Made by a program: the position numbers and the translations under genes | Virus record (IMG/VR): IMGVR_UViG_3300031111_000011 | Span: 1 to 64,000 of that record | DNA from: a virus | DNA length: 64,000 nt | Direction: 5' to 3' (one strand) | The notes under the pieces: generated by a model | What the model was told of the DNA's origin: nothing | Database searches by the model: none | What the model saw: the letters and a program-made list of their open reading frames with translations, nothing else | Shown here: positions 7,249 to 63,735 of the stretch, in pieces | How positions within the stretch are numbered: the stretch's first letter is position 1 | How the letters are laid out: every line of letters starts with the position of its first letter

Positions 7249-8028
7249 ATGGAAAAACTCAGAGAGGCAATGTCCAAGGTGCTACGAGACGTAGGCGAAG
7301 GGTACGAACTGTTCTTGCTGGTTACTTACCACAGTCAGACCACTGGGGTCACCATCTTGGACAAGGATCTGACCATCCTCTGGTACAACCCATATGTCCA
7401 AAAATACTTTGGCCTTGAGTTCATTAACACTAATTACCTTGACAGGTTTCCTGGGGAGCAGAGAGAGGCCACGAAGAGTCAACTGCGGCAAGCAGAAAGG
7501 ACCGGGGTCAGTGATCCTGCGCTCCTTCAGCCCCCAGGTGTTGAGATGGTTGTCGAAAGGCGCATCTGGGCAGTCTCAGGCGGGTACATCGCCGCATCCT
7601 ACGACCACACCGTACTCACTCAAGCAGAACAACGCACCAAGGATGTACAGACCACACTGACCCTCTTAGCTGAGGCGCGGGAGGGGCTGATACGGGATGC
7701 CCAACTCAAGACACTGGATATGATGGAAACTCACTGCAAGGCAATCTGCGGCAAATATGGGAACCGAAGCCCGTATGAGTGCAAGTCGAGAAAGAAAGTG
7801 CTGGCTGAGATCCTGGCAGGTAGGCCCAGGCTCCAGACCACACTCACTGACACTGAACTGGAGGTGGCTCGGCTCTACCAAGCGGGTCATCGGAGAAAGG
7901 AGGTTGCCGAGATCCTCGATGTGTCTGAGCATACGGTAAAAAATCATAGTACCTCCATCAGAAAAAAGCTTGGCATGAACAACCCAAGTGTGTCCCTTAT
8001 TGAGTATCTTCAACGGTTTACCTTATAG
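7249..8028 (+). CDS. LuxR/FixJ-family transcriptional regulator with N-terminal PAS-like sensor domain (259 aa)
   Basis: C-terminal HTH TDTELEVARLYQAGHRRKEVAEILDVSEHTVKNHSTSIRKKLGM matches the LuxR-type HTH signature; the N-terminal ~120 aa have PAS-like composition. Confidence 0.7.
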   Translation: MEKLREAMSKVLRDVGEGYELFLLVTYHSQTTGVTILDKDLTILWYNPYVQKYFGLEFINTNYLDRFPGEQREATKSQLRQAERTGVSDPALLQPPGVEMVVERRIWAVSGGYIAASYDHTVLTQAEQRTKDVQTTLTLLAEAREGLIRDAQLKTLDMMETHCKAICGKYGNRSPYECKSRKKVLAEILAGRPRLQTTLTDTELEVARLYQAGHRRKEVAEILDVSEHTVKNHSTSIRKKLGMNNPSVSLIEYLQRFTL

Positions 8029-19669: not shown

Positions 19670-20539
19670 ATGAAACGACTTTTTTTGATCGCTCTGACTA
19701 TCCTGATGGCCTTTTCCCTCTCCGCTTGCGGAGTTTCCCACGTCGATCCCAACGAGGAACTCGCCCTGGTGAGCAAACTGGGTGACGGCAAGGGCTCCAT
19801 CCAGGTCTACGGTACCGGGTGGCAGTTTTACAACCCGCTGAAGTGGACCGGCAAGACCTTCTCCCTGGCCCGAACCACCATCAAGTGGGTGACTGAAGAC
19901 CCCAACACCGGTGCTTTCACCTTCAACAGCAGCAAGGGGCTCAAGTTCCAAGTGGATGTCGGGGCTACTGTCCAGATGCGAAAGGGTGCGTCTGCCGAGG
20001 CGTACCGACTCTACAAGAAGGACATCAACGCTGTCCTGAACTCCGACTTCGGGAACAACCTGCGGGAGGCGTTCAACGACGCTGGTTCCCAACGCGCCAC
20101 AGAGGAAATCTACGGCGACAAGAAAGCCTTCGTGGATGCTGTCGAGGAAATCATGCAGAAGCGATTCTCCGTCCTCTTCCAGGACGTGGACATTTTCCTG
20201 CTCAATGACATGATTCTCCCGCCTTCGGTCAAGGCCGGTATCGAGCGTAAGGAAGCCGCCCGTCAGAAAGCCGAGCAGCGAGAGAACGAGATCGCTGAGG
20301 CCACCGCTGACCGGCTGAAGAAACAACAGGCCACCGATGCTGTTGCCTACGAGATCGAGCGCACTGCCCAGGCCAAGGCCAAGGAGATCACCTCCATTGC
20401 CGAAGCTGAGGCGAAAGCCATCATGCTGAAACGGGCTCAGATCACCCCTGAATACGTCGAGTACGTCAAGGTCAACGGATGGGACGGCAAGCTTCCCCAG
20501 GTCACGGGAGGCGCTGGCACCCTGATCGACTTGCGGTAA
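19670..20539 (+). CDS. SPFH/band-7 (HflK/HflC/prohibitin-like) lipoprotein (289 aa)
   Basis: Lipobox LSAC after a signal peptide; coiled-coil region QRENEIAEA...AKAKEITSIAEAEAKAI typical of SPFH proteins. Confidence 0.7.
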   Translation: MKRLFLIALTILMAFSLSACGVSHVDPNEELALVSKLGDGKGSIQVYGTGWQFYNPLKWTGKTFSLARTTIKWVTEDPNTGAFTFNSSKGLKFQVDVGATVQMRKGASAEAYRLYKKDINAVLNSDFGNNLREAFNDAGSQRATEEIYGDKKAFVDAVEEIMQKRFSVLFQDVDIFLLNDMILPPSVKAGIERKEAARQKAEQRENEIAEATADRLKKQQATDAVAYEIERTAQAKAKEITSIAEAEAKAIMLKRAQITPEYVEYVKVNGWDGKLPQVTGGAGTLIDLR

Positions 20540-22916: not shown

Positions 22917-24823
22917 TGTTCCCAACGCTGTACCAGGAGTTCATCTACAAGCGAACCTATTCTCGGTGGCTGGATGAACTCCTTCGGAGAGAGGAGTGGG
23001 AGGACACGGTAGCTCGGTACCAAGAGTTCTTCCTGGACGGTAAACTCAAGGATATTCCCGATGCAGCTAAGGTGGAATTCCTTGAGGCTACCGGTGCAAT
23101 CTACAACCTCGAAGTTATGGGGTCCATGCGGACCCTGTGGACTGCTGGTCCTGCCTTGGCCCGTGAAAACATCTGCGGGTACAACTGTGCTTACAAGGCA
23201 GTCAATACTGTGCGAAGCTTCGCTGAGATCCTGTACATCCTGCTCTGTGGTACTGGGGTTGGGTACAGTGTGGAGCGGCAGGAGATCAACCAACTCCCTG
23301 AAGTCCCGCCTTACTTCTCCACTCCAGAACGCACCGTTGTGTTCTCTGATTCGAAGAAGGGATGGGCTGAGGGATTTCTCAAGTGGATGAACGCCCTCTA
23401 TAAGGGTGAGTTGCTTGAGTACGACCTCTCCCGAATCCGTCCTGCTGGATCACGGCTGAAGACCTTCGGGGGCAGAGCCAGTGGACCTGAGCCCCTCCAG
23501 GAACTTCTGGAATTCGCCAAACGCATTTTTCTCAGTGCCAAGGGACGGAAGCTAACGAGCCTGGAATGTTACGACATCTGCTGCAAGATCGCTGAGGTGG
23601 TTGTCGTAGGAGGTGTGAGACGGTCTGCCTGTATTTGCCTCACCAACCTGTCCGATGACCGGATGGCTAAGGCCAAGACGGGTGAGTTCTGGCTTCTCAA
23701 CCCCCAGAGATCCCTGTCCAACAATTCGGTGGCGTACACCGAGAAGCCTCAAGTGCGGAAGTTCATGAGTGAGTGGCTCAAGCTCATGGAGTCCCAGACC
23801 GGAGAGCGGGGGATCTTCAATCGAAGAGCAGCAGAGGTTGCTGTGCAGCGCACCCTACGCCGAAAGGGAGGGTTCGCTTGGGGCTGCAATCCTTGCGGGG
23901 AAGTGATTCTCCGTCCGTCTGGTCAGTTCTGCAACCTGAGCGAGGCGATCATTCGGGCTGAGGACACTCTTGAAACAATTCTCAAGAAGGTCCGATACGC
24001 AACCATCCTGGGTTGTGTCCAGGCCACACTCACTGCGTTCAAATTTCTGGGGAGTTCATGGACAGTGAACACCGAGGAGGAGCGACTCCTTGGGGTGTCT
24101 CTCACAGGTCTTATGGACCATCCAATTCTTAGTGAGGTGTCGGACAAGGCCAAGGCATGGCTTGTCAAGATGAAAGGAGAGGCCATTGAAACAGCGGAAA
24201 GGTGGTCGGAGATTCTTGGAATTCCGATGCCGAAAGCGATTACGACCGTCAAGCCGTCTGGAACAGTCAGTCAACTGGTTGACTCTGCATCCGGACTTCA
24301 CCCTCGCTTTGCTCCTTTCTATGTACGCCGGGTTCGTGTCTCTGCGACAGATCCTGTAGCGAAGATGCTTGTTGACCAGGGAGTTCCCTGTAGCCCTGAA
24401 GTCGGACAGGACACGGTAAGTCCATCCACTTGGGTCTTTGAGTTCCCGGTTAAGTCTCCGGACAACGCGAAGGTAGCCAGCGCAATCACTGCTCTGGAGC
24501 AGTTGGAGTACTGGCTGATGCTCAAACAGCATTGGTGTGAACACAACCCCTCTTGCACGGTCTATGTGGGAGAGGATGAGTGGTTGGAAGTGGGTGCATG
24601 GGTGTGGAAACACTGGGATGAGATTTGCGGTCTTACCTTCATGCCTCGCAGTGACGCAGTTTACAAACTTGCTCCTTATGAGGAGGTAGATGCGAGGACT
24701 TACTACGATCTTGTTGACGCTCTTCCTGACATCAATTTTGGTGAATTGTCTCGATACGAAACCGAAGACCTCACTGAAGGGAGCAGAGAATTCGCCTGTC
24801 AGGGAGGAGCTTGCGAACTATGA
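22916..24823 (+). CDS. nrdJ: ribonucleotide reductase, class II (adenosylcobalamin-dependent NrdJ-like, 635 aa)
   Basis: N-terminal FIYKRTYSRW; active-site GCNPCGEVIL (NPCGE); size typical of NrdJ. Confidence 0.8.
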   Translation: MFPTLYQEFIYKRTYSRWLDELLRREEWEDTVARYQEFFLDGKLKDIPDAAKVEFLEATGAIYNLEVMGSMRTLWTAGPALARENICGYNCAYKAVNTVRSFAEILYILLCGTGVGYSVERQEINQLPEVPPYFSTPERTVVFSDSKKGWAEGFLKWMNALYKGELLEYDLSRIRPAGSRLKTFGGRASGPEPLQELLEFAKRIFLSAKGRKLTSLECYDICCKIAEVVVVGGVRRSACICLTNLSDDRMAKAKTGEFWLLNPQRSLSNNSVAYTEKPQVRKFMSEWLKLMESQTGERGIFNRRAAEVAVQRTLRRKGGFAWGCNPCGEVILRPSGQFCNLSEAIIRAEDTLETILKKVRYATILGCVQATLTAFKFLGSSWTVNTEEERLLGVSLTGLMDHPILSEVSDKAKAWLVKMKGEAIETAERWSEILGIPMPKAITTVKPSGTVSQLVDSASGLHPRFAPFYVRRVRVSATDPVAKMLVDQGVPCSPEVGQDTVSPSTWVFEFPVKSPDNAKVASAITALEQLEYWLMLKQHWCEHNPSCTVYVGEDEWLEVGAWVWKHWDEICGLTFMPRSDAVYKLAPYEEVDARTYYDLVDALPDINFGELSRYETEDLTEGSREFACQGGACEL

Positions 24824-24966
24824 AAATGATTCTGGAGTACGTCGCAGGGATTTTTATCTCACTTGGGGCCATCATCGGAGCGGGTGCGGTGATGGTTATT
24901 GCAACTTTGGCCGCAACGTGGCCCTTTTGGGTTGCTCTTGCCTGTATCGTTTACATCTTCTTTTAG
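24820..24966 (+). CDS. small membrane protein (48 aa, 2 TM)
   Basis: ATGA overlap with RNR stop; wholly hydrophobic. Confidence 0.4.
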   Translation: MKMILEYVAGIFISLGAIIGAGAVMVIATLAATWPFWVALACIVYIFF

Positions 24967-24975
24967 GAGGCCAAC

Positions 24976-25080
24976 ATGACAATCGAACGCTTTATGGAGT
25001 GGGTCATGGTGGGGATCATCGTTGTTGCGGGGATCTTCATCACTCTCGGTATCGACTCACTCTCCAACATCCTGAGTTAG
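24976..25080 (+). CDS. small membrane protein (34 aa, 1 TM)
   Basis: SD ttttaggaggccaacATG. Confidence 0.4.
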   Translation: MTIERFMEWVMVGIIVVAGIFITLGIDSLSNILS

Positions 25081-25089
25081 GAGGTGGCC

Positions 25090-25329
25090 TTGAATCAGAA
25101 GGGATTCACTTTGATCGAACTGATGATTGTGGTTGCGATCATTGGGATCTTGGGCGCTGTGGCCGTCCCCAATCTCGTTTCTTACAAGCAGAAAGCGGAG
25201 TCGGCAGCACTGGAAATCAAGATCAACCGAGAGAACATGAAAAAGGCGGGGGAGGATCTGAGGGACACCTTCAAGTCCCTCCTCCCCCGGAAGACTTACT
25301 CGAACGAAGTTATTGTGACAAGGGAGTAA
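25090..25329 (+). CDS. type IV pilin-like (prepilin-type N-terminal methylation motif) mini-protein (79 aa, TTG start)
   Basis: MNQKG|[22 protein letters not shown] matches the prepilin leader + N-methyl-Phe + hydrophobic helix signature; SD aggagg 5 nt upstream of TTG. Confidence 0.55.
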
Positions 25330-25331
25330 CA

Positions 25332-25862
25332 TTGGCAATTGACAAAGACCAGATGCGAGATCTGGTTCGGGATGTCCTGATGTACCTGGACCCTGAGATC
25401 CCCTTCTCTGCTGATGCAGTGGAGTTGATCATGCTCACTATGGCTCAGGAATCCCACATGGGAACATACATTAAGCAGCTTGGTACAGGACCGGCCAAGG
25501 GTGTGGTTCAGATGGAACCCTCTACTGAGGAAGACATCTGGGACAATTACCTGCGGTACAAGAAGGATCTGGCAACTAAGGTACGTGCGCTCTATGCAGC
25601 CATGCAAATCGGGCGTGACTTTGAGCTTGATCCTCTTCGACACAACCTCGCCTACCAGATCGCCATGGCGAGGGTTCACTATCGGAGAGTGAGTGACCCT
25701 CTTCCCAAGGTCCATTTCCAACTTCAGTTTGAGGCTGATGGGATCATCACAGAGAACAGTGTGAAGCGACTCGCTGAGTATTGGAAGGAGCATTACAACA
25801 CACCACTTGGAAAGGGAAAACCTGAAGAGGCGGTGTACAACTATGTGAGGTTCGCTGTATGA
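25332..25862 (+). CDS. putative lytic transglycosylase/lysozyme-like protein (176 aa, TTG start)
   Basis: MAQESHMG (catalytic E-S), GVVQM and AYQIAMA resemble SLT-domain motifs; SD aagggag + TTG. Confidence 0.45.
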   Translation: MAIDKDQMRDLVRDVLMYLDPEIPFSADAVELIMLTMAQESHMGTYIKQLGTGPAKGVVQMEPSTEEDIWDNYLRYKKDLATKVRALYAAMQIGRDFELDPLRHNLAYQIAMARVHYRRVSDPLPKVHFQLQFEADGIITENSVKRLAEYWKEHYNTPLGKGKPEEAVYNYVRFAV

Positions 25863-26383
25863 GGAACTGCGATAACTGTCGGTACTTAGAGGTTTCTCTA
25901 CGGGATGAGCCGTGCTTCGGGTGTGTAGGGTACAGTAACTGGAAACCCGAACTCCCTCCCAGTGGAGAGGGACAGAAAGGACGAGAAGTAATCGTGAATA
26001 ACTGTGTTCTCCCCGACAGCGGGAAACGAGAAGGGTTCGATAGTGGATCGATTCGAGATAGCCGAGAAGGGAAAGGCCGGTACGATCTGATCAGCCCCTT
26101 CGCTCTGAAGCGGATCGCAGTCCACTACGAAAATGGTGCCAAGAAGTACGCTGACCGGAACTGGGAGAAAGGCCAACCGATCATGCGGTACTTCGACAGT
26201 GCCGTGCGTCACCTCTTCACATGGGTCACAGACAAACTCTGTGGCCGTCCCCATGCGGAGGATCACCTCGCTGCTGCGGCCTGGAACGTCATGGCAATGC
26301 TGGACCACGAGGAACGTATCGCTATTGGCCGACTCCCTACCGGGATCGATGATAGCCCTGGTCCTGCATGGAAGCCCGAATAA
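25859..26383 (+). CDS. hypothetical protein with N-terminal zinc ribbon (174 aa)
   Basis: CDNC...CFGC ribbon; segment RIAVHYENGAKKYADRNWEKG recalls phage dATP/dGTP pyrophosphohydrolase-associated domains (unverified). Confidence 0.5.
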   Translation: MRNCDNCRYLEVSLRDEPCFGCVGYSNWKPELPPSGEGQKGREVIVNNCVLPDSGKREGFDSGSIRDSREGKGRYDLISPFALKRIAVHYENGAKKYADRNWEKGQPIMRYFDSAVRHLFTWVTDKLCGRPHAEDHLAAAAWNVMAMLDHEERIAIGRLPTGIDDSPGPAWKPE

Positions 26384-34648: not shown

Positions 34649-35940
34649 TAGCCCACCTTTCCGAAGAGGGGAATCACCTGGGCTGTCTTGGGTGCGTGGA
34701 CCCCGTCATCCTCCCAAGGATGGAACTGAGCAGCCCACTCATCGATGAGCCTCTTCCCCTCCTCCTTGAGGGTCTTCTCAAAGTGGATGTAGTCCTGGGT
34801 GATCAGTGCTCCCATCTGGATTGGGTCACCCTTCTTCTGGATCGTATGAGAGAGCATCACACTCACCAGACGTTCGTTCCCAGACACCTCATAGAGTTTG
34901 GTAGCCAGAGTGTGTCGGAACTTGTGGAAGGATTCACTCTCCTTCCTACTCTTGCCCTTCTGGACCCCAAACAACAGTTCCCTGGCCTGATTGATTGGTC
35001 GTCGAGAGTGCCATTTGAACCGGAACACCTTACCAGTGTATTTGGCCGATCCGTGTTTTTTGGACTGTACCAATTTAATAGCGTCCTTGACGATCTCAGG
35101 CATGTAGAACCATGCCCACTTCCCGTCATTCGGACCCTTTCGCAGGAACTTGAGGGTTCCTTCCTTCCAGTCGATCCGGTCCCACCACACTCCCACATCC
35201 TTCTTATGGTTCCCGTTCCCAGTGAGTTCATGGACTCGGAACCCCATGAAGAAGCCCAGGCAGACCTGGGCGTAAGCTTCGGCCCATCGGAGTCCATCCA
35301 CCCCCTCAGTTTGTCTGTACAGGAACCGTAGCAGCTTGGCTACTTCCTCATCCGTGAACGTCCGGACATCCTCCATCAATTCCTCCTCAGTAGGTTCGGT
35401 GCTGACAGGTTTGACCAGATCAGCCGGGTTAGCCCCGGCGTACAGACCCTCCCCAAGGGCAAACTTGTACAGGTTCCGGATCGTGCTGATGAAGGCGTTG
35501 ATCGTGGTCGGTGCGTAGTGCCCCTCCTTGACCAAAGCCCTCTGAAACACCCGGAGCTTGCCTGGGGTGATTGCCGCCAGGGGCTCATGTGCGAACCATT
35601 TCTTAAACCGCTGGTTGTACTTGGATTGGTAGTTCGGCACAGCCGATGCTCCCACCTTTTCCATGTGCTCCAGCCACAACTTGTACGCCCGACTGAAAGT
35701 GATCGCTTCGAGCTTGTCCGGGATGGCCTGTCCCAGTTTGAGCTTCTGAAGCATCTTATTCCGCTCCTCCTCAGCGATCTGAAGGGAGAATCCGTTGTCC
35801 TCCCTGCCCACCTGGAACCGCTTGTTCTTACCATCCACCTTCACCATGAAGCTGAAGGTCTTGCCATCCCTGCCGTGGTAGGTGTAACAGCCCCGGTGCC
35901 GCTTGCTTGCTACGTGTGTCCCGATTTTCCCCTTTGCCAT
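34648..35940 (-). CDS. int: tyrosine-type site-specific integrase (431 aa from SD-supported start)
   Basis: C-terminal catalytic motifs R...HKFRHTLAT...LSHT...Y; start set at MAKGK with SD aaaggaggtagaATG (listed ORF extends 23 codons further upstream without an SD). Confidence 0.85.
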   Translation of the reverse strand: MAKGKIGTHVASKRHRGCYTYHGRDGKTFSFMVKVDGKNKRFQVGREDNGFSLQIAEEERNKMLQKLKLGQAIPDKLEAITFSRAYKLWLEHMEKVGASAVPNYQSKYNQRFKKWFAHEPLAAITPGKLRVFQRALVKEGHYAPTTINAFISTIRNLYKFALGEGLYAGANPADLVKPVSTEPTEEELMEDVRTFTDEEVAKLLRFLYRQTEGVDGLRWAEAYAQVCLGFFMGFRVHELTGNGNHKKDVGVWWDRIDWKEGTLKFLRKGPNDGKWAWFYMPEIVKDAIKLVQSKKHGSAKYTGKVFRFKWHSRRPINQARELLFGVQKGKSRKESESFHKFRHTLATKLYEVSGNERLVSVMLSHTIQKKGDPIQMGALITQDYIHFEKTLKEEGKRLIDEWAAQFHPWEDDGVHAPKTAQVIPLFGKVG

Positions 35941-36107
35941 TCTACCTCCTTTCGTGGGGTAACAAACCCCGGTTTGATTGTGACTTTCTTGTGACTTTTG
36001 GCCCGTCATGACTTACTGCAATAATTCAATTTTTCAAGTCTGGGCAAATATAACAACTCCGCAAACCTTTGTCAATAGCGAACTTCTCGTGTGTTATCAG
36101 TACCTTC

Positions 36108-36260: not shown

Positions 36261-36587
36261 TTAGGAACCACCCTCTGGTTGGGCAGGTTGGATAATGGCT
36301 GGTGGAGTGGATGGTAGGACAACTGGGGGCAGTTCCTTGACCATCGTGAATCCCATACCCACAAGTCCAGCAATGAAAGCGGCCAGTCCACCGAACAGTA
36401 CCTTCCGCTGATTACCCCGGAGTGTGTCTACCTCACCCCTGAGATCCTCAATGTGAGCCCGGTTGGTCGCGCACCGACTCCATCCACCGTTATTGGCTTT
36501 GGCATGAATCTCATCCACCTTGCTCTGGACAGACATAAGCCTTTCGTCAATGCGAACCAGGAGTTCGCCCATCTCAGCAGGATTCAT
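36261..36587 (-). CDS. membrane-anchored protein with coiled-coil N-terminus and C-terminal TM (108 aa); lysis/spanin-like candidate
   Basis: TM LFGGLAAFIAGLVGMGFTMV then Pro-rich tail; ATGA overlap with upstream gene. Confidence 0.5.
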   Translation of the reverse strand: MNPAEMGELLVRIDERLMSVQSKVDEIHAKANNGGWSRCATNRAHIEDLRGEVDTLRGNQRKVLFGGLAAFIAGLVGMGFTMVKELPPVVLPSTPPAIIQPAQPEGGS

Positions 36588-36997
36588 TACACCCCCTTCT
36601 TGAGCGCCATGAAGTCAGCGATCTTGCGGTAACCGAAAGCAGATCCTACGGCGATGCCGAGCATCCATTGGTACCACTGTGGGCAGGTAGCCAGGGCAGC
36701 AAACCCGACTGTGACCCACCCTGCTCCGGTTGGAAAGAAACAGAGGATGGCAGGAATCGAAAGGACAATGGTAAACCATTCATCCTTCCACCCGCTCTGG
36801 TTGATGGAGGTGTTCTCCCAGGCGATGTCCCCCTGCTGTTGGGTGAGCATCTTATTAATGGTAGCTTCGGTTTTCGCCTCAGTCACCTTGACCTTGGATT
36901 CAACCTCCACCTCTTTGATACGTTGCCGATGTCGGAACCAATCTGTGACGGGGGCCATCAGACCCCCGACCAGATCACCAAGGATCTTACCGACCAC
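36587..36997 (-). CDS. putative holin/membrane protein (136 aa, C-terminal TM helices)
   Basis: Hydrophobic segments FTIVLSIPAILCFF, WVTVGFAALATC, MLGIAVGSAFGY; last of the structural cluster. Confidence 0.5.
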   Translation of the reverse strand: MVGKILGDLVGGLMAPVTDWFRHRQRIKEVEVESKVKVTEAKTEATINKMLTQQQGDIAWENTSINQSGWKDEWFTIVLSIPAILCFFPTGAGWVTVGFAALATCPQWYQWMLGIAVGSAFGYRKIADFMALKKGV

Positions 36998-54241: not shown

Positions 54242-56291
54242 CAGTCACCTCTGGGATTGCGCCCTGTTCAAGTTGCTCAGGTGGTAGCTGCTCCATGTGG
54301 GGAAGCCCAGGCCGCTCTGTTGACCCTTCGTCGTTAACATGGCCGCTTGATTTAGCCTTCATGAGTTCCAGTTCGCGCATGAACTGTTTTTCCTCCTCAG
54401 CAGCGGCAGCAGCCCTTTGCTGCTCATCAGCAACCTGATCCGGATTCTTGATGAGGTTCATCTCATCCAAGTCAAGTGCCTTGGCGATTTCTCGGAGGAT
54501 CGCATCACGATTCACGAACTGCATATCGATCTCGTTGTTCGTGAGGGCAAGGAACTGGTTAAGCTGTTCGGCTCGAACTTCTTTAGCAATCAGAGAGGCA
54601 GATCCCTCGGCATTAACGCTGAAGTCGCCCTTGATTTCCGGTTTCGGATTGAACTCCATGTTCCAGAAATACATGCTCTTGATGAAGGGCTTTGTGATCC
54701 CATCATCGAAGTTCTTGACCTGATCCTTAATGGTGATGTTGGCTGATCCCATCAGGAGGCTTAGGCCAGTAGCTGTCTTGCCAGCACCTCCGAGGTGCGC
54801 CTGATCTCCGTACATATAACGGGGAACAGTGGTAACCTCGTCAGCAGTCTTCAGGAAGAATTCCACCATGGTGAGAAATTCAGAGGTATGTGACGGAATC
54901 TGGTTGACATTGATTGCCTTGGCTGAGGCTTCCATGCCCTGGCCGTTACGTCTGAAAACTCTGAATGGGTAGATGTCTTGCGGATCTTCAGCCGAGTCCA
55001 GAAGGTCGATGTTGGCCTCGATAATAGGACCGGCAGAGATGGCAGCATTATCGAGCAGAGCACGAACACTGGCGTTGAACAGGCTCTGCGGATCACGCAT
55101 GATCCGGGGGATGCCTTCACCGAAAATGCTCGTCTCGTCCTTCTCGTAGTAGTAGGTGAAATATGGGAAAGTGACCCCTTCCAGGGGACTGATCACCGCC
55201 TTGATCACTACGTCACCGAGAAGCCACACGTTGGCAGCAACCTCCATACCGAGCCTTTCCTCATCAATCTCAACGCCGTAATCCTTGAGATCCTGAGTAC
55301 TTACGAACCCCCAAAACTCAAGGAGTTCATATCGGCCTTTGGCCCCCATCTGAGTAGCCGCCTTGCTCTCACCATCCTGGCTGAGGGTCCGGAGGTCACT
55401 CTCATGGTTCTTGTACTCGACATCGCCGTCGTGGTGTGCTCGAAGGTATGCTCGAATAGCGTCCCCTTTGAAGTCCTTCCGGCCAGCAAGCTGGTAAACC
55501 TGATGCCGGTTCTTGACGTGTCGCTGGAACACAAATCGGGCATCGTCAACCCGGTTCACAGACATGTCAGGGTAAAAGTCCCAAATAGGGACAAACTCAC
55601 AGTAAGGTGAGTAGGACGTCATGGACATTGTGGCCCAGGTACCACTCTCATGTGGAACCCATCGTTTCGCCACGTTCTGTTTAATCAGTGGGCCTTTGAG
55701 AATACCCGTTCCGTAAACATTCCCGGAATGGATGACATTCCGAATGATCTCTCGATACTTGATCTCAGCGAGTTGATCTTCGATCTCCTTTTGCATCGAA
55801 TCAGATCTACGTTTCGCTTCATCAAAAAGAACTTGCTTGATCTGGTGAGGAGATGGCTCCTGGCCGTTGATTTCGGTGAGTTGGGCGTAAATCTGTTCGA
55901 CCAAATCTGGGCTCAACTCCGGAAGCGGAGTCGGGGTAATCCCCCAGTTACGGTCCCCGTTCGCTGGAAAGAGTATGTCACACACCCTGGCACTGACTGT
56001 TTTGACCTTTGTGCGTGTGATGGAAAGATTCGCCTTCGACCGTTTTGGGTGCATTTTTGAGAGAATACCAGGGTCATACTGCCCCTTGTATTGGCGAAGA
56101 TCCTTGATCCACTCCTGTTCGATTTGACGACGATCTGATTCCACTTGATCGAAGAGCCCACGGATATACAGGCCGAGAGGGGACATATAGTCCGCATACA
56201 TCGCTTTCTTTTCAGTGAGTTCTGGACTTGCCTCTTCCTCTTTCACAGCAGCGACGTAGGTCTTGTCAAACATCTGCTTTTCATGTTCCAT
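54234..56291 (-). CDS. portal (head-tail connector) protein (685 aa)
   Basis: Size and position immediately upstream of scaffold-MCP; acidic helical protein. Confidence 0.6.
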   Translation of the reverse strand: MEHEKQMFDKTYVAAVKEEEASPELTEKKAMYADYMSPLGLYIRGLFDQVESDRRQIEQEWIKDLRQYKGQYDPGILSKMHPKRSKANLSITRTKVKTVSARVCDILFPANGDRNWGITPTPLPELSPDLVEQIYAQLTEINGQEPSPHQIKQVLFDEAKRRSDSMQKEIEDQLAEIKYREIIRNVIHSGNVYGTGILKGPLIKQNVAKRWVPHESGTWATMSMTSYSPYCEFVPIWDFYPDMSVNRVDDARFVFQRHVKNRHQVYQLAGRKDFKGDAIRAYLRAHHDGDVEYKNHESDLRTLSQDGESKAATQMGAKGRYELLEFWGFVSTQDLKDYGVEIDEERLGMEVAANVWLLGDVVIKAVISPLEGVTFPYFTYYYEKDETSIFGEGIPRIMRDPQSLFNASVRALLDNAAISAGPIIEANIDLLDSAEDPQDIYPFRVFRRNGQGMEASAKAINVNQIPSHTSEFLTMVEFFLKTADEVTTVPRYMYGDQAHLGGAGKTATGLSLLMGSANITIKDQVKNFDDGITKPFIKSMYFWNMEFNPKPEIKGDFSVNAEGSASLIAKEVRAEQLNQFLALTNNEIDMQFVNRDAILREIAKALDLDEMNLIKNPDQVADEQQRAAAAAEEEKQFMRELELMKAKSSGHVNDEGSTERPGLPHMEQLPPEQLEQGAIPEVTVG

Positions 56292-62076: not shown

Positions 62077-62151
62077 TGGAAGGGGCAGAAGGAATCGAAC
62101 CTTCCTGCACAGGTTCAAAGCCTGTTGGTTAAGCCGCTCACCCATACCCCT
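62077..62151 (-). tRNA. tRNA-Gln(TTG)
   Basis: 7-bp acceptor AGGGGTA/TGCCCCT, T-arm GGTTCGATTCC, anticodon loop CTTTGAA, CCA encoded. Confidence 0.7.
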
Positions 62152-62157
62152 ATAAGC

Positions 62158-62232
62158 TGGTCAGGGATGCTGGAATCGAACCAGCCGCCCCAAGCTTCCA
62201 AAGCCCAGGAGACTCCTTGCCGTTATCCCTGA
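62158..62232 (-). tRNA. tRNA-like gene, anticodon uncertain (possibly Pro-TGG); irregular stems
   Basis: Good acceptor TCAGGGA/TCCCTGA and T-arm GCTGG-TTCGATT-CCAGC, but D and anticodon arms pair only with several G-U wobbles; possible pseudo-tRNA. Confidence 0.4.
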
Positions 62233-62243
62233 TGATTTGCAGA

Positions 62244-62318
62244 TGGCTCCAGAACCTGGACTCGAACCAGGATTTCAACGGTTAACAGCCGCGCGTGTTA
62301 CCTTGACACTATTCTGGA
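62244..62318 (-). tRNA. tRNA-Asn(GTT)
   Basis: Acceptor TCCAGAA/TTCTGGA, D-arm GTGT-CAAGGTA-ACAC, anticodon loop CTGTTAA, T-arm CCTGG-TTCGAGT-CCAGG, CCA. Confidence 0.7.
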
Positions 62319-62329
62319 GTGAGGAGAGA

Positions 62330-62406
62330 TGGTTGGAGCGAGAGGATTCGAACCCCCACTTAACGGGTTAAAAGCCCGTTGTGCTAACCGTTGACACTAC
62401 GCTCCA
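62330..62406 (-). tRNA. tRNA-Lys(TTT)
   Basis: Acceptor TGGAGCG/CGCTCCA, anticodon arm ACGGG-CTTTTAA-CCCGT, T-arm GGGGG-TTCGAAT-CCTCT. Confidence 0.75.
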
Positions 62407-62416
62407 ACAAAAAAGA

Positions 62417-62492
62417 TGGTCGCACCACCAGGACTCAAACCTGGGTCTGTCGCTTATCAGGCAACTGTTCTAATCTGTTGAACTATGGTGCA
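62417..62492 (-). tRNA. tRNA-Ile(GAT)
   Basis: D-arm GTTC...GAAC, anticodon arm GTTGC-CTGATAA-GCGAC, T-arm CCAGG-TTTGAGT-CCTGG. Confidence 0.75.
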
Positions 62493-62495
62493 ATG

Positions 62496-62569
62496 TGGCA
62501 CCCCGCTAAGGAATCGAACCCTACCAATGCACCGGGTTGGAACCGGGCCGCACCCATGTGCTGCGAGGT
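62496..62569 (-). tRNA. atypical tRNA (possible Trp-CCA) with truncated D-arm
   Basis: Acceptor ACCTCGC/GCGGGGT (1 G-U), T-arm TAGGG-TTCGATT-CCTTA, candidate anticodon loop TTCCAAC; D-region only CAC-ATGG-GTG. Confidence 0.4.
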
Positions 62570-62583
62570 GTGAGATGTAGAAA

Positions 62584-62659
62584 TGGGGTGAGCGGAGGGA
62601 ATCGAACCCTCTACAACAGGGCCACGACCTGTCGGCTCAACCTTTTGCTCTTCGCCCAC
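62584..62659 (-). tRNA. atypical tRNA (possible His-GTG) with short D-arm
   Basis: Acceptor GTGGGCG/CGCTCAC, T-arm GAGGG-TTCGATT-CCCTC, candidate anticodon arm ACAGG-TCGTGGC-CCTGT (C33); a 6-bp hairpin sits in the downstream spacer. Confidence 0.4.
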
Positions 62660-62696
62660 AGTTGGACCACTCACTAAGAGTGGCTCACCCCACGAA

Positions 62697-62796
62697 ATGG
62701 ACGATGACCGTGGGACTCGAACCCACGCTCCCAAGAGGTGTCTCCCGGCGATCAACCCGTAACTGCCCCCCAGTGTGTTATCCAGCTACACCAGAC
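62697..62796 (-). tRNA. ~100-nt tRNA-like gene with ~25-nt internal insertion (isotype undetermined)
   Basis: Acceptor CGATGTC/GTCATCG (6/7), family D-arm GTGT-AGCTGGATA-ACAC, T-arm GTGGG-TTCGAGT-CCCAC and encoded CCA, but the anticodon/variable region is ~25 nt too long. Confidence 0.4.
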
Positions 62797-62808
62797 ATCG
62801 ATATTTGT

Positions 62809-62883
62809 TGGTACTCCCTGATGGAATCGAACCACCCTCTACTGCTTGTAAGGCAGTCGTTATAGCCACTCTACTAAGGGAGT
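62809..62883 (-). tRNA. tRNA-Val(TAC)
   Basis: Acceptor ACTCCCT/AGGGAGT, anticodon arm ACTGC-CTTACAA-GCAGT, T-arm GGTGG-TTCGATT-CCATC, CCA. Confidence 0.75.
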
Positions 62884-62954
62884 ATGTGCCGGTGGCAGTG
62901 ATTAACGACCTTTGCTCTTATCATCGGGACGGTCATGCGAGGACCGGCAGAAAA

Positions 62955-63028
62955 TGGACTCCCTGAGAGGATTCGAACCTCCATCCAACGGTTCGTAGCC
63001 GAATGCTCATCCGTTGAGCTACAGGGAG
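62955..63028 (-). tRNA. tRNA-Arg(ACG)
   Basis: Acceptor CTCCCTG/CAGGGAG, D-arm GCTC-AACGGAT-GAGC, anticodon loop CTACGAA (3-bp stem + 2 mismatches), T-arm GGAGG-TTCGAAT-CCTCT. Confidence 0.6.
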
Positions 63029-63075
63029 TGAGTTGGTTTTGCCCTAAAAATAGGGGCGTTTTTGTGGCAAAACTA

Positions 63076-63151
63076 TGGTCTGCCTGGGAGGAGTCGAACC
63101 CCCTACTCTGGGGGTAGAAACCCCAAGCTCTGTCCGATGAGCTACAGGCAG
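63076..63151 (-). tRNA. tRNA-Arg(TCT)
   Basis: Acceptor CTGCCTG/CAGGCAG, D-arm GCTC-ATCGGACA-GAGC, anticodon arm TGGGG-TTTCTAC-CCCCA. Confidence 0.75.
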
Positions 63152-63156
63152 TGAAG

Positions 63157-63231
63157 TGGAGCCTCGTGGAGGACTTGAACCCCCGTCCCAAGCTTACAAG
63201 GCACGTATTCTACCAGTTGAACTAACGAGGC
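63157..63231 (-). tRNA. tRNA-Thr(TGT)
   Basis: Acceptor GCCTCGT/ACGAGGC, anticodon loop CTTGTAA, T-arm GGGGG-TTCAAGT-CCTCC, CCA. Confidence 0.7.
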
Positions 63232-63238
63232 AAAGAAG

Positions 63239-63312
63239 TGGAGCGGTCACCAGGAATCGAACCTGGATCTGCCATCGGGGAGACAGCTATGCTACCATTA
63301 CACCATGACTGC
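63239..63312 (-). tRNA. tRNA-Gly(CCC) (tentative)
   Basis: Acceptor GCAGTCA/TGACCGC (1 mismatch), D-arm TG-GTGT-AATGGTA-GCAT, anticodon arm GCTGT-CTCCCCG-ATGGC, T-arm CCAGG-TTCGATT-CCTGG. Confidence 0.55.
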
Positions 63313-63323
63313 TCAAAAATTGA

Positions 63324-63400
63324 TGGAGCGGATACAGGGACTCGAACCCTGACCATCTGGTTGGAAGCCAGATATGCTTGCCGTTGAACACCATACCCGC
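63324..63400 (-). tRNA. tRNA-Gly(TCC)
   Basis: Acceptor GCGGGTA/TATCCGC, anticodon arm TCTGG-CTTCCAA-CCAGA (perfect), T-arm CAGGG-TTCGAGT-CCCTG. Confidence 0.75.
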
Positions 63401-63404
63401 TCAG

Positions 63405-63488
63405 TGAGCCAAGGGGAGACTCGAACTCCCAAACCTTCCAGATCAGGGCCATGGTGACCTGGATATGCACCCTATACACCAGCTTGGC
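63405..63488 (-). tRNA. atypical tRNA-like gene with 17-nt anticodon-region loop (10-nt insertion)
   Basis: Acceptor GCCAAGC/CTTGGC, family D-arm TG-GTGT-ATAGGGT-GCAT, T-arm GGGAG-TTCGAGT-CTCCC; anticodon stem TCCAG/CTGGA closes a 17-nt loop containing CCATGGTGACC. Confidence 0.4.
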
Positions 63489-63496
63489 GTGTTCGA

Positions 63497-63572
63497 TGGT
63501 GGACCAAGAGGGACTCGAACCCTCAGCGTCCTCCTTGCAAGGGAGGAGTGTTCCCGATTACACCACCGGCCC
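63497..63572 (-). tRNA. tRNA-Ala(TGC)
   Basis: Acceptor GGGCCGG/TTGGTCC with G3:U70 Ala identity pair; anticodon arm CCTCC-CTTGCAA-GGAGG; T-arm GAGGG-TTCGAGT-CCCTC; CCA. Confidence 0.75.
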
Positions 63573-63661
63573 ACAGGACAGATTTCCTTTTTGACGTCTT
63601 GGGCCAGGAATACTGTCTAAGAACCCAATGGAACCACAGGGGTATCTCCCCATGGCGGTTT

Positions 63662-63735
63662 TGGCGGTCCATACGGGACTCGAACCCGTCTTGCATGATC
63701 GACAGTCACGCACCTTCCCTGATGGCTAATGGACC
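63662..63735 (-). tRNA. tRNA-Asp(GTC)
   Basis: Acceptor GGTCCAT/ATGGACC, anticodon arm CGTGA-CTGTCGA-TCATG, T-arm ACGGG-TTCGAGT-CCCGT, CCA. Confidence 0.65.

Follow-up and report, generated by a model that had tools for sequence, protein, structure and literature searches.

Between a ribonucleotide reductase (RNR) gene and the gene of what is very probably its endolysin, the uncultivated phage analysed here encodes a 79-residue protein with a prepilin N-terminus and, upstream of it, two very small membrane peptides. We tentatively favour, at somewhat less than an even chance, the reading that the endolysin is separate from these small genes and that the 79-residue protein is an early-expressed inner-membrane pilin mimic that would disturb the type IV pili of the host, in the sense of superinfection exclusion or receptor shutdown. 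All positions refer to the whole stretch of 64,000 nucleotides that was analysed (the window).

Organisation of the locus

Downstream of the RNR gene, four small open reading frames (ORFs) for products of 48, 34, 79 and 176 residues follow each other in this order, closely spaced on the plus strand and each preceded by a Shine-Dalgarno sequence at a distance of about 5 nt, and an independent gene caller returned the identical four genes. The ORF for the 48-residue peptide (24820–24966) starts with an ATG that overlaps the RNR stop codon as ATGA, with GGGAGGAG upstream, and the ORF for the 34-residue peptide (24976–25080) has AGGAGG at 24965–24970, 5 nt before its ATG. The genes for the 79-residue protein (25090–25329) and the 176-residue protein (25332–25862) both start with TTG, the former 5 nt downstream of an AGGAGG (25079–25084) and the latter 5 nt downstream of a GGGAG; the TTG start of the 176-residue protein agrees with its homologues, which begin at this same residue. 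The positions of the ORFs and the strongly hydrophobic nature of the first two products are as an earlier interpretation made from the DNA letters (the sequence-only reading) had given them, except that the two membrane peptides do not flank the pilin-like gene, as claimed there, since both are encoded upstream of it.

Start and stop codons overlap in the cluster, and translation of the three small genes is coupled to that of the reductase, with the consequence that their products would be made in lytic growth. Matches to promoter or terminator consensus sequences were not found inside the cluster, with counts below the shuffle mean for a consensus that may not be that of the host. Stop-codon recoding that would fuse the three in-frame ORFs was considered and rejected, since TAG terminates 17 of the 75 long ORFs in the window.

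The phage is temperate, because it carries an integrase; its wider context comprises DNA polymerase A, a structural operon and a tRNA cluster, and the neighbours of the pilin-like gene are the RNR gene, the endolysin gene and genes for a MazZ-like enzyme and RtcB. A PADLOC run over the proteins gave nothing credible. Pfam matches to PilB, PilC, PilD or a secretin were found neither in the 20 kb around the pilin-like gene nor in the other ORFs scanned and, as no assembly genes for a pilus or a T2SS are nearby, the 79-residue protein would have to use the machinery of the host.

The pilin-like N-terminus of the 79-residue protein

The 79-residue product begins with the 5-residue leader MNQKG, which puts Gly at position -1, followed by Phe at +1, Glu at +5 and the hydrophobic helix alpha-1N. 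A short basic leader ending in Gly, Phe+1, Glu+5 and a hydrophobic helix of about 20 residues are the hallmarks of a class III signal. The sequence-only reading had recognised a prepilin N-terminus here, and curated models confirmed it: PF07963 scored 39.8 bits (cutoff 21.2) and TIGR02532 37.6 bits (cutoff 16.3), which places the motif far above chance. In addition, all invariant columns (21/21) of an alignment of 52 pilins are retained, including G-1, F1, E5 and P22. The best database matches were PilA-type pilins carrying PF16732, PF16734 and PF14245. As these matches include Geobacter-type pilins of 60-83 residues from Desulfobacterota, the earlier statement that the product is far shorter than functional pilins had to be abandoned.

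The likeness to pilins is confined to the leader and helix alpha-1. Matches to the 'pilin' families phrog_27437 and phrog_3433 were limited to residues 4-43, whereas the NCBIfam equivalog models aligned only approximately residues 4-52 and all scored below their cutoffs (PilA_Myxo 47.4/400, PpdD 43.8/138, GspG 38.4/88.9 and ComGC 36.4/75 bits), and the C-terminal 52 residues gave no significant similarity to pilins. The AF2 model (pLDDT 77.9) predicts a single helix over residues 8-64 and a disordered tail of 15 residues, and the globular alpha-beta head domain, which in pilins often has a disulphide-bonded D-region, is absent from it; the sequence has no Cys, and the mature protein is poor in aromatic residues (F1, Y27, F56 and Y65). 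Judged by these comparisons, the N-terminus fits a type IV pilus pilin and a T2SS or competence pseudopilin alike and does not tell them apart. A search for full-length relatives among 5.8 billion clusters returned only the protein itself, and tblastn against 50,697 GenBank phages gave no match, the hydrophobic N-terminus probably being masked by the low-complexity filter.

Recurrence in related phages and other viral contigs

A sister phage (L167/168) carries, at the identical junction between RNR and endolysin genes, a mini-pilin of 45 residues (MKQKG/FTLIELM...AAP, the slash marking the end of the leader), the stop codon of which overlaps the start of the endolysin gene. Because G-1, F1, E5 and the Pro are kept in this protein despite a divergent transmembrane (TM) segment, the comparison points to selection on pilin-specific residues and not on a generic anchor. 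Six other related lineages (L004, L087, L169/170, L171/172, L176 and L177) have the RNR gene joined directly to the endolysin gene, without small genes, and for this reason the three small genes appear to be an accessory insertion in a variable spot between reductase and endolysin. Truncated pilins were also found in unrelated viral contigs, with lengths of 31, 54, 85 and 90 residues. A general link between pilins and endolysins was not seen in 160 viral loci: a pilin motif lay beside the endolysin in 0 of 80 IMG/VR loci with a phrog_3108-type endolysin (the family of the 176-residue protein), and this endolysin family occurred within 3 kb in 0 of 80 viral pilin loci.

Comparison with known pilin mimics and short pilins

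A 2026 study described phage-encoded pilin mimics, truncated PilA among them, and the 79-residue protein is a new example of such mimics and not a new principle. P-FimU of F10-like Pseudomonas prophages enters the pilus and blocks tip-binding phages, and that study also describes PilA-like genes in phages, six Pseudomonas phages having an N-terminal-only form of about 60 residues (Sztanko et al., Cell Rep 2026, PMC12952977). Like these, the 79-residue protein is encoded by a phage gene copying a type IV pilus subunit, with a similarity to pilins that spans its N-terminal ~40 residues; the truncated forms, too, keep only the leader and the N-terminal helix, and the proposed use, blocking of pilus-dependent phages, is common to all. 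It differs from P-FimU, which is a minor pilin of full size, made by the prophage, that preserves pilus function, and from the truncated Pseudomonas PilA forms, which occur in virulent phages, whereas the 79-residue protein is encoded in an early lytic operon of a temperate, uncultivated phage. Compared by description with both, it is unique in its charged tail of approximately 45 residues and in the two orphan TM peptides encoded alongside.

Activity of short pilin fragments from within the membrane has been described for host pilins. In Caulobacter, a PilA fragment consisting of the leader followed by 17-37 residues signals via the TM1 helix of PleC, a 17-residue peptide lowers susceptibility to PhiCbK by 77%, and truncated pilins signal from the inner membrane and lower the susceptibility to pilus-dependent phages (PMC7196804); in Pseudomonas, PilS binds PilA in the membrane, resulting in autoregulation (PMC6058289). 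What the Caulobacter CIP peptide/PleC and PilA/PilS pairs have in common with our proposal is a short pilin N-terminus that acts from the inner membrane, and what sets them apart is that they involve host pilins or laboratory constructs. The sequence-only reading had suggested a pilin mimic directed against type IV pili or the T2SS; we infer interference with type IV pili to be the best-supported function of the 79-residue protein, in line with the published precedents (PMC12952977, PMC7196804).

The short type IVa pilins of the Geobacter type (PilA-N, approximately 60-75 residues) resemble the 79-residue protein in the class III signal, a near-identical alpha-1N and a single head-less helix. 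In contrast to them, it has no PilA-C partner gene, few aromatic residues and an unrelated C-terminal half, and it is phage-encoded, away from pilus genes. It could, in principle, be a replacement pilin of this type that is assembled into host pili, does not lower their number and gives the filament a different surface, by which the receptor would be masked, as with P-FimU, or adhesion or conductivity changed. The size and the single-helix model match the short pilins among the best matches, the residues E5 and P22 required for assembly are present, and P-FimU shows that a phage-encoded pilin can be incorporated while the pilus goes on working (PMC12952977). We nevertheless consider a replacement pilin unlikely, since the C-terminal half is charged and unlike that of any pilin, with the last 15 residues predicted to be disordered, a PilA-C-like partner gene is absent downstream, the 45-residue version of the sister phage would be too short for an exposed surface, and expression is tied to lytic genes.

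The 48- and 34-residue membrane peptides

The 48-residue peptide is nearly all hydrophobic and probably a two-helix hairpin, and the 34-residue peptide is, by its hydropathy profile, a single-pass membrane peptide. Common to both is the motif VAGIFI[S/T]LG, with 8/10 residues identical, a value reached by 0 of 5000 shuffles. Different codons are used at five of the eight identical residues, and this conservation of the motif despite differing codons argues that both ORFs are coding and paralogous. The 48-residue peptide found only itself among 5.8 billion clustered proteins, and the 34-residue peptide only itself when 1.84 billion representatives were searched exhaustively with HMMER; the former belongs to no Pfam, PHROG, NCBIfam or PADLOC family, and both are absent in all relatives examined. 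A similarity of the TM peptides to the pilin TM helix was also considered and rejected, as the best alignment had 6/10 identical residues and at least 6/10 is reached in approximately 2% of shuffles of the 48-residue against the 34-residue peptide.

A charged hydrophilic C-terminal tail is typical of holins. With holins the two peptides have in common the TM segments and the location of their genes, 250-510 nt upstream of the endolysin start; they lack such a tail, ending in ...CIVYIFF and ...DSLSNILS, they are not conserved together with the endolysin, and a holin-family match was found for neither of them in Pfam, PHROG or NCBIfam. Another group of very small phage peptides of the inner membrane offers a working analogy, namely superinfection exclusion: PfsE of Pf4, with 30 residues, binds PilC in the inner membrane and blocks pili (PMC8764522), and Tip and Aqs1 bind PilB. 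The 34-residue peptide fits PfsE in size and in its single TM segment, but has no sequence similarity to it. The orphan status of both peptides and the absence of the YxWGW motif of PfsE count against a link to pili, which is pure analogy.

The endolysin and its probable membrane partners

For the 176-residue protein, a lysozyme/lytic-transglycosylase-like fold was predicted with confidence. Across 56 sequences there is no variation at E40, S41, Q60 and N156 and almost none at G57 and Y155, and helix 27-41 ends at E40-S41; the confident fold and the invariant Glu-Ser pair bear out the lysozyme-like assignment of the sequence-only reading. The protein belongs to phrog_3108, which is listed as 'unknown function' in PHROGs; it has no Pfam or NCBIfam match at E values up to 1 and no PDB relative by profile search, and among its homologues two carry PF18013 and one bears the UniRef name SLT-domain protein. 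The Glu-Ser, GxxQ and Y-N motifs would fit family-1 lytic transglycosylases, according to a reading of the sequence and not a superposition. With these enzymes and the lysozyme-like endolysins (phiKZ gp144, phi6 P5, MltE, Slt70) it has in common the catalytic Glu-Ser at a helix end, GxxQ and YN, and it differs in being missed by the Pfam SLT/lysozyme models. A signal sequence is absent, and the protein is cytoplasmic. Since holins and spanins adjoin the family in other phages, the protein is very probably the endolysin of the phage, and PHROG 3108 could be annotated as an endolysin of lysozyme/lytic-transglycosylase fold. A Maridesulfovibrio prophage carries a homologue with 49% identity in an unrelated prophage context, which gives no more than a hint at a Desulfobacterota-like host.

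Likely membrane partners of the endolysin are encoded at 36.2-37.0 kb, at the end of the late operon. A 136-residue protein (36587–36997, minus strand) has TM segments and matches phrog_2524 with an E value of 9e-26; it has no Pfam match, and its pairwise match to GTA_holin_3TM is weak (E 0.049). In another phage locus, L136, a homologue of this protein (phmmer 1.5e-7, jackhmmer 6e-36) lies directly downstream of a homologue of the endolysin, and by this synteny the 136-residue protein would be a probable holin-type partner. The adjoining 108-residue protein (36261–36587, minus strand), with a coiled coil and a C-terminal TM segment, has no family match and has the same architecture as a 109-residue protein encoded directly upstream of the L136 endolysin homologue; its position suggests that it is possibly a further membrane component of lysis. 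Unlike phage endolysins of the lysozyme/SLT type, the 176-residue protein would thus be encoded apart from its probable membrane partners, the enzyme among early DNA-metabolism genes and the partners at the end of the late operon. Such a split layout resembles that of T7.

These findings bear on the proposal, also made in the sequence-only reading, that the cluster is a lysis cassette, in which the 48- and 34-residue peptides would be holin and antiholin, or a pinholin, and the pilin-like protein a further lysis factor of the membrane or spanning the periplasm, all acting with the adjacent endolysin. Its endolysin part stands, and the four genes are contiguous and translationally coupled, the endolysin family adjoins holins in other phages, in the sister phage, too, the mini-pilin gene runs into the endolysin gene, the stop codon of the one overlapping the start codon of the other, and a lipobox scan of the window revealed no credible ORF for an Rz/Rz1-type spanin pair. 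The assignment of the small peptides as holin and antiholin fares less well: the six related lineages keep the endolysin without them, they have neither the expected tail nor a holin family, and the L136 arrangement places the partners elsewhere. Moreover, a mere anchor would not need perfect pilin-specific residues, and the two sets of 80 viral loci gave no instance of a pilin motif and this endolysin family side by side. Taken as a whole, a lysis cassette is distinctly unlikely.

A pilin mimic of the inner membrane and its possible targets

According to the pilin-mimic reading, which we prefer, the 79-residue product would insert into the inner membrane and the host prepilin peptidase would cut it after Gly-1. 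The resulting head-less pilin of one helix may then engage any component that senses the conserved alpha-1N helix in the major pilin of the host. Such a component could be the assembly platform together with neighbouring subunits, where it would be a poison or filler subunit, the prepilin peptidase, for which it would compete, or a pilin-sensing kinase of the PilS/PleC type, to which it would give the false signal that the pilin pool is full. The net effect would be fewer or altered pili on the surface, such that pilus-dependent phages, or the phage's own progeny, would fail to adsorb to the infected cell. The 48- and 34-residue peptides may assist it in the inner membrane or inhibit the same machine themselves; by analogy with PfsE, this is the weakest step of the scheme.

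Two features of the locus count against the pilin-mimic reading. The gene is part of a lytic-cycle operon without a separate promoter, which is not the arrangement of the classic exclusion genes of prophages, and in both carrier phages the endolysin gene follows immediately after the pilin gene, which leaves some probability for a role in lysis. The failure of the N-terminus to distinguish a type IV pilin from a pseudopilin counts against it as well.

The target could also be another machine that uses class III signals, i.e. a T2SS pseudopilus, a PilA-N/PilA-C pseudopilus or competence pili, in which case the protein would serve host takeover and not exclusion. In Geobacter-like hosts, the periplasmic PilA-N/PilA-C pseudopilus serves cytochrome export. 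The GspG, GspH and ComGC models also match the N-terminus of the 79-residue protein, a 'VPNL' after the helix core appears, on reading the sequence, to resemble GspG, and the host hints are Desulfobacterota, but the best full-protein score is that of PilA_Myxo, 47.4 bits compared to 38.4 bits for GspG, and the best database matches are PilA-type pilins, which makes a target of this kind quite improbable. We regard as very improbable that the small genes are functionless, i.e. what is left of a host pilin gene that was captured and is decaying, together with hydrophobic ORFs that exist by chance, since the orphan status of all three products, the variation of the locus among relatives and the missing head domain are outweighed by the strong Shine-Dalgarno sequences at 5-nt spacing for every ORF, the intact invariant pilin residues in two otherwise divergent phages, the paralogous motif kept through synonymous changes and the recurrence of truncated phage pilins in unrelated viral contigs and in Pseudomonas phages (PMC12952977).

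Should the mini-pilin indeed turn off pili, the strategy of a phage copying a pilus part would extend to a temperate, uncultivated phage whose hosts are probably anaerobic and Desulfobacterota-like, to a minimal pilin of one helix and to expression in the lytic cycle. A bolder extension of the pilin-mimic reading, in which we place little confidence, would be that head-less mini-pilins of 31-79 residues (the 79-residue protein, the 45-residue protein of the sister phage and the 31- and 54-residue forms) are a recurrent phage device, acting as false intramembrane signal or poison subunit and not as structural pilins. Their alpha-1N would engage the kinase, platform or peptidase and turn off pili or pseudopilus secretion within minutes after infection, and in the present phage the device would be extended to a three-part inner-membrane module with two new paralogous peptides. 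Taken as a pair, the 79- and 45-residue proteins suggest that activity requires no more than the leader and alpha-1N, the same fragment that signals from the membrane in Caulobacter.

A small-gene cluster behind the ribonucleotide reductase gene

The window covers most of a ~67-kb phage genome, and two public contigs, of 67,073 and 67,101 nt, carry proteins identical to its own. The phage is temperate and carries an integrase gene (34651-36009, minus strand). Its early, DNA-metabolism block occupies ~3.4-31 kb on the plus strand and encodes DNA polymerase A, a T7-type endonuclease I, dUTPase, class II ribonucleotide reductase (RNR), a MazZ-like diphosphohydrolase, RtcB, NAMPT and DNA ligase, while the minus strand carries a long late operon, one product of which is a 2235-aa LPD38 protein. 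Within the early block, immediately 3' of the RNR gene, lies the cluster studied here. The four ORFs proposed by the sequence-only reading of this region are real, and the same four were called by an independent gene caller on a public contig. All are on the plus strand: p48 (48 aa, 24820-24966), whose ATG overlaps the RNR stop, p34 (34 aa, 24976-25080), p79 (79 aa, 25090-25329, TTG start) and p176 (176 aa, 25332-25862, TTG start), whose stop overlaps the ATG of the next gene. Each ORF is preceded by a Shine-Dalgarno site, with a spacer of 5 nt for p34, p79 and p176, and no promoter or terminator consensus was found inside the small-gene cluster. The small genes are coupled to the early lytic genes.

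The genes for p48, p34 and p79 (24820-25329) share one reading frame, an arrangement with a chance of 1 in 9, and are separated only by TAG stops within TAGGAGG, which combines stop and Shine-Dalgarno site, followed by the 5-nt spacer. Recoding of TAG across the three genes is unlikely, since TAG serves as the normal stop in 17 of 75 long ORFs.

p79 resembles pilins at its N-terminus only

The prepilin N-terminus ascribed to p79 was borne out by PF07963 (39.8 bits, cutoff 21.2) and TIGR02532 (37.6, cutoff 16.3), and of the 21 positions that do not vary across 52 aligned pilins p79 retains every one. The predicted leader has 5 aa, and the pilin N-termini of Geobacter sulfurreducens, Myxococcus xanthus and Pseudomonas aeruginosa closely match that of p79, being near-identical. 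Its best matches are PilA-type pilins, many of them from Desulfobacterota; because natural pilins of 60-83 aa are among these, the earlier claim of a length well below that of functional pilins is wrong. The similarity stops beyond about residue 45, and the last 52 residues searched alone gave no pilin match. The predicted model consists of a single helix (residues 8-64) and a disordered tail, with no head domain, and the protein contains no Cys and few aromatic residues.

Both p48 and p34 are hydrophobic along their whole length and have the motif VAGIFI[S/T]LG in common (8/10 identity), a match reached by none of 5000 composition-preserving shuffles. Different codons are used at five of the eight identical residues, which indicates that the two putative membrane peptides are coding sequence under selection and arose by duplication. 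Their sole precedent is PfsE, a phage inner-membrane peptide of 30 aa that binds PilC (PMC8764522). As the PfsE motif is absent from both, a role of this paralogous pair as pilus inhibitors is an analogy.

The small genes are accessory

In six lineages of related phages (L004, L087, L169/170, L171/172, L176 and L177), the RNR gene is directly followed by the endolysin gene, the product of which is 49-60% identical to p176. The three small genes are thus accessory genes at a variable locus. A further relative, L167/168 (endolysin 54% identical), carries an ORF of 45 aa at precisely this junction, and there too start codon and RNR stop overlap as ATGA. This ORF, beginning with MKQKG followed by FTLIELMVMIMILMIFIAMAAPAVKEFRGG..., matches PF07963; its transmembrane core has diverged, with G-1, F1, E5 and the Pro retained. 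Pilin and endolysin have no general link: the pilin motif was found beside none of 80 IMG/VR loci of the endolysin family (phrog_3108), and this family was found within 3 kb of the pilin in none of 80 IMG/VR pilin loci.

Further short prepilin ORFs of 31, 54, 85 and 90 aa occur in unrelated viral contigs. The one of 31 aa (L065, 3001-3096), on a jumbo-size viral contig of 222 kb (IMGVR_UViG_2700988902_000001), is flanked by apparent ORFs for the small and large RNR subunits, a further mini-pilin set among nucleotide-metabolism genes.

The probable endolysin and its candidate membrane partners

Neither Pfam nor NCBIfam gave a match for p176, which matches phrog_3108 ('unknown function', E 4e-33). 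Among its 138 homologues, PF18013 (phage tail lysozyme) was detected on two, and UniRef names one as an SLT-domain protein. E40-S41, Q60, E62 and N156 are invariant in a 56-sequence alignment, and Y155 nearly so. Helix 27-41 terminates at the Glu-Ser pair, an arrangement that, from the motif, we presume to be akin to that of family-1 lytic transglycosylases. No signal sequence was found in p176. The family, although without annotation, is an ordinary one. In L094 and L097 the next gene encodes a PF11351 holin (E 1.5e-22 and 2.3e-30); in L091 a protein with two transmembrane segments comes next, and after it an Rz-like protein that has a weak DUF2514 match and whose gene contains a lipobox ORF. 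Based on these canonical lysis cassettes of other phages, p176 is best read as an endolysin, a putative lytic transglycosylase or hydrolase.

In the relatives L088 (2842-3474), L090 (2818-3468) and L092 (2917-3474), an earlier start of the endolysin ORF would add a hydrophobic N-terminal segment, e.g. MKWIKYLTILSVLLITL..., and these could be signal-anchor (SAR-type) versions. In L088 and L090 the extension is possibly spurious because it overlaps an upstream nrdG-like gene.

A candidate holin of the window phage, a 136-aa membrane protein of phrog_2524 (36587-36997, minus strand) next to a 108-aa protein (36261-36587), was recognised by synteny. In the viral locus L136, a homologue of the 136-aa protein (phmmer 1.5e-7, jackhmmer 6e-36) lies directly 3' of the endolysin homologue, and a coiled-coil protein with a C-terminal transmembrane segment, built like the 108-aa protein, lies directly 5' of it. 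The 136-aa protein had no Pfam match and a weak pairwise match to a GTA-type holin. From this synteny, the lysis cassette appears to be split, the enzyme being encoded in the early block and its membrane partners where the late operon ends, a layout also seen in T7.

The small genes may instead act with the adjacent endolysin as one lysis cassette. The pilin adjoins the endolysin in both pilin-bearing phages, and a lipobox scan of the window found no recognisable spanin; however, relatives do without the small genes, the C-termini of p48 and p34 are uncharged and the membrane partners are located elsewhere. The original interpretation is supported in part: the prepilin N-terminus stands, p176 is a probable endolysin, the single lysis cassette is weakened, and interference by the pilin is, as we infer, the best reading.

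Interference with host pili as the best reading of p79

According to this reading, p79 would insert into the membrane, be cleaved by the host peptidase and interfere with host pili, whether as a poison subunit, by competing for the peptidase or by mimicry towards a kinase. It is preferred because of three published facts. The pilin-like P-FimU of a prophage is incorporated into the pilus and blocks phages that bind the tip (PMC12952977). In Caulobacter PilA, the leader plus 17-37 residues suffice for signalling via the TM1 helix of the kinase PleC, and a 17-aa peptide cuts PhiCbK susceptibility by 77% (PMC7196804). PilA is also sensed directly in the membrane by the kinase PilS (PMC6058289). 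PilA-like phage genes, including an N-terminal-only form of ~60 residues, have been described, with incorporation or inhibition of assembly proposed (PMC12952977), and p79 is a fresh case of this recently described kind of gene.

Alternatively, p79 may be a functional replacement pilin, which its size would fit, but its unique tail, like the 45-aa form of the sister phage, suits this poorly. A T2SS or pseudopilus may also be the target of p79: the models of PilA, PpdD, GspG and ComGC matched its N-terminus only, all below their cutoffs. Decay is unlikely because every assembly-relevant residue of the prepilin signal is intact, the ribosome-binding sites are strong and the changes in the motif common to p48 and p34 are synonymous.

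Other features of the phage genome

The endolysin gene starts at 25332 in the window and at 55877 in the 67,073-nt ENA contig k141_1898663. Window and public assemblies are circularly permuted relative to each other, which fits a genome that is complete and either circular or terminally redundant. A tRNA gene cluster at 62.0-63.8 kb comprises 12 genes according to ARAGORN (62077-63735, minus strand; Gln, Asn, Lys, Ile, Val, two Arg, Thr, two Gly, Ala, Asp) and 13 according to Rfam, numbers that are unusual in a 67-kb temperate phage. The gene at 25859-26383 encodes a Cys-rich N-terminal extension and, behind it, a dATP/dGTP diphosphohydrolase domain that is MazZ-like (PF18909, E 8e-21). Phages with 2-aminoadenine (Z) genomes are known to have this domain; no PurZ-like protein turned up in those window ORFs that were scanned. 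At 19670-20539 lies a gene for an SPFH/Band_7 protein (PF01145) that bears a lipoprotein signal (LSAC), and in two unrelated viral contigs (L072, 3157-4041; L040, 1667-2842) a prepilin-like gene directly adjoins one for a protein that is SPFH-like by eye. The RNA-repair genes (RtcB ligase, RlaP nucleotidyltransferase) and NAD-salvage genes (NAMPT, CTP_transf_like/NMNAT-like) of the phage (26432-27661, 10550-11713, 28874-30322 and the adjacent gene) together suggest counter-defence against systems that cleave tRNA and systems that deplete NAD. Finally, a 259-aa protein (7249-8028) combining a PAS fold with a LuxR-type (GerE) helix-turn-helix may be a signal-responsive phage regulator.
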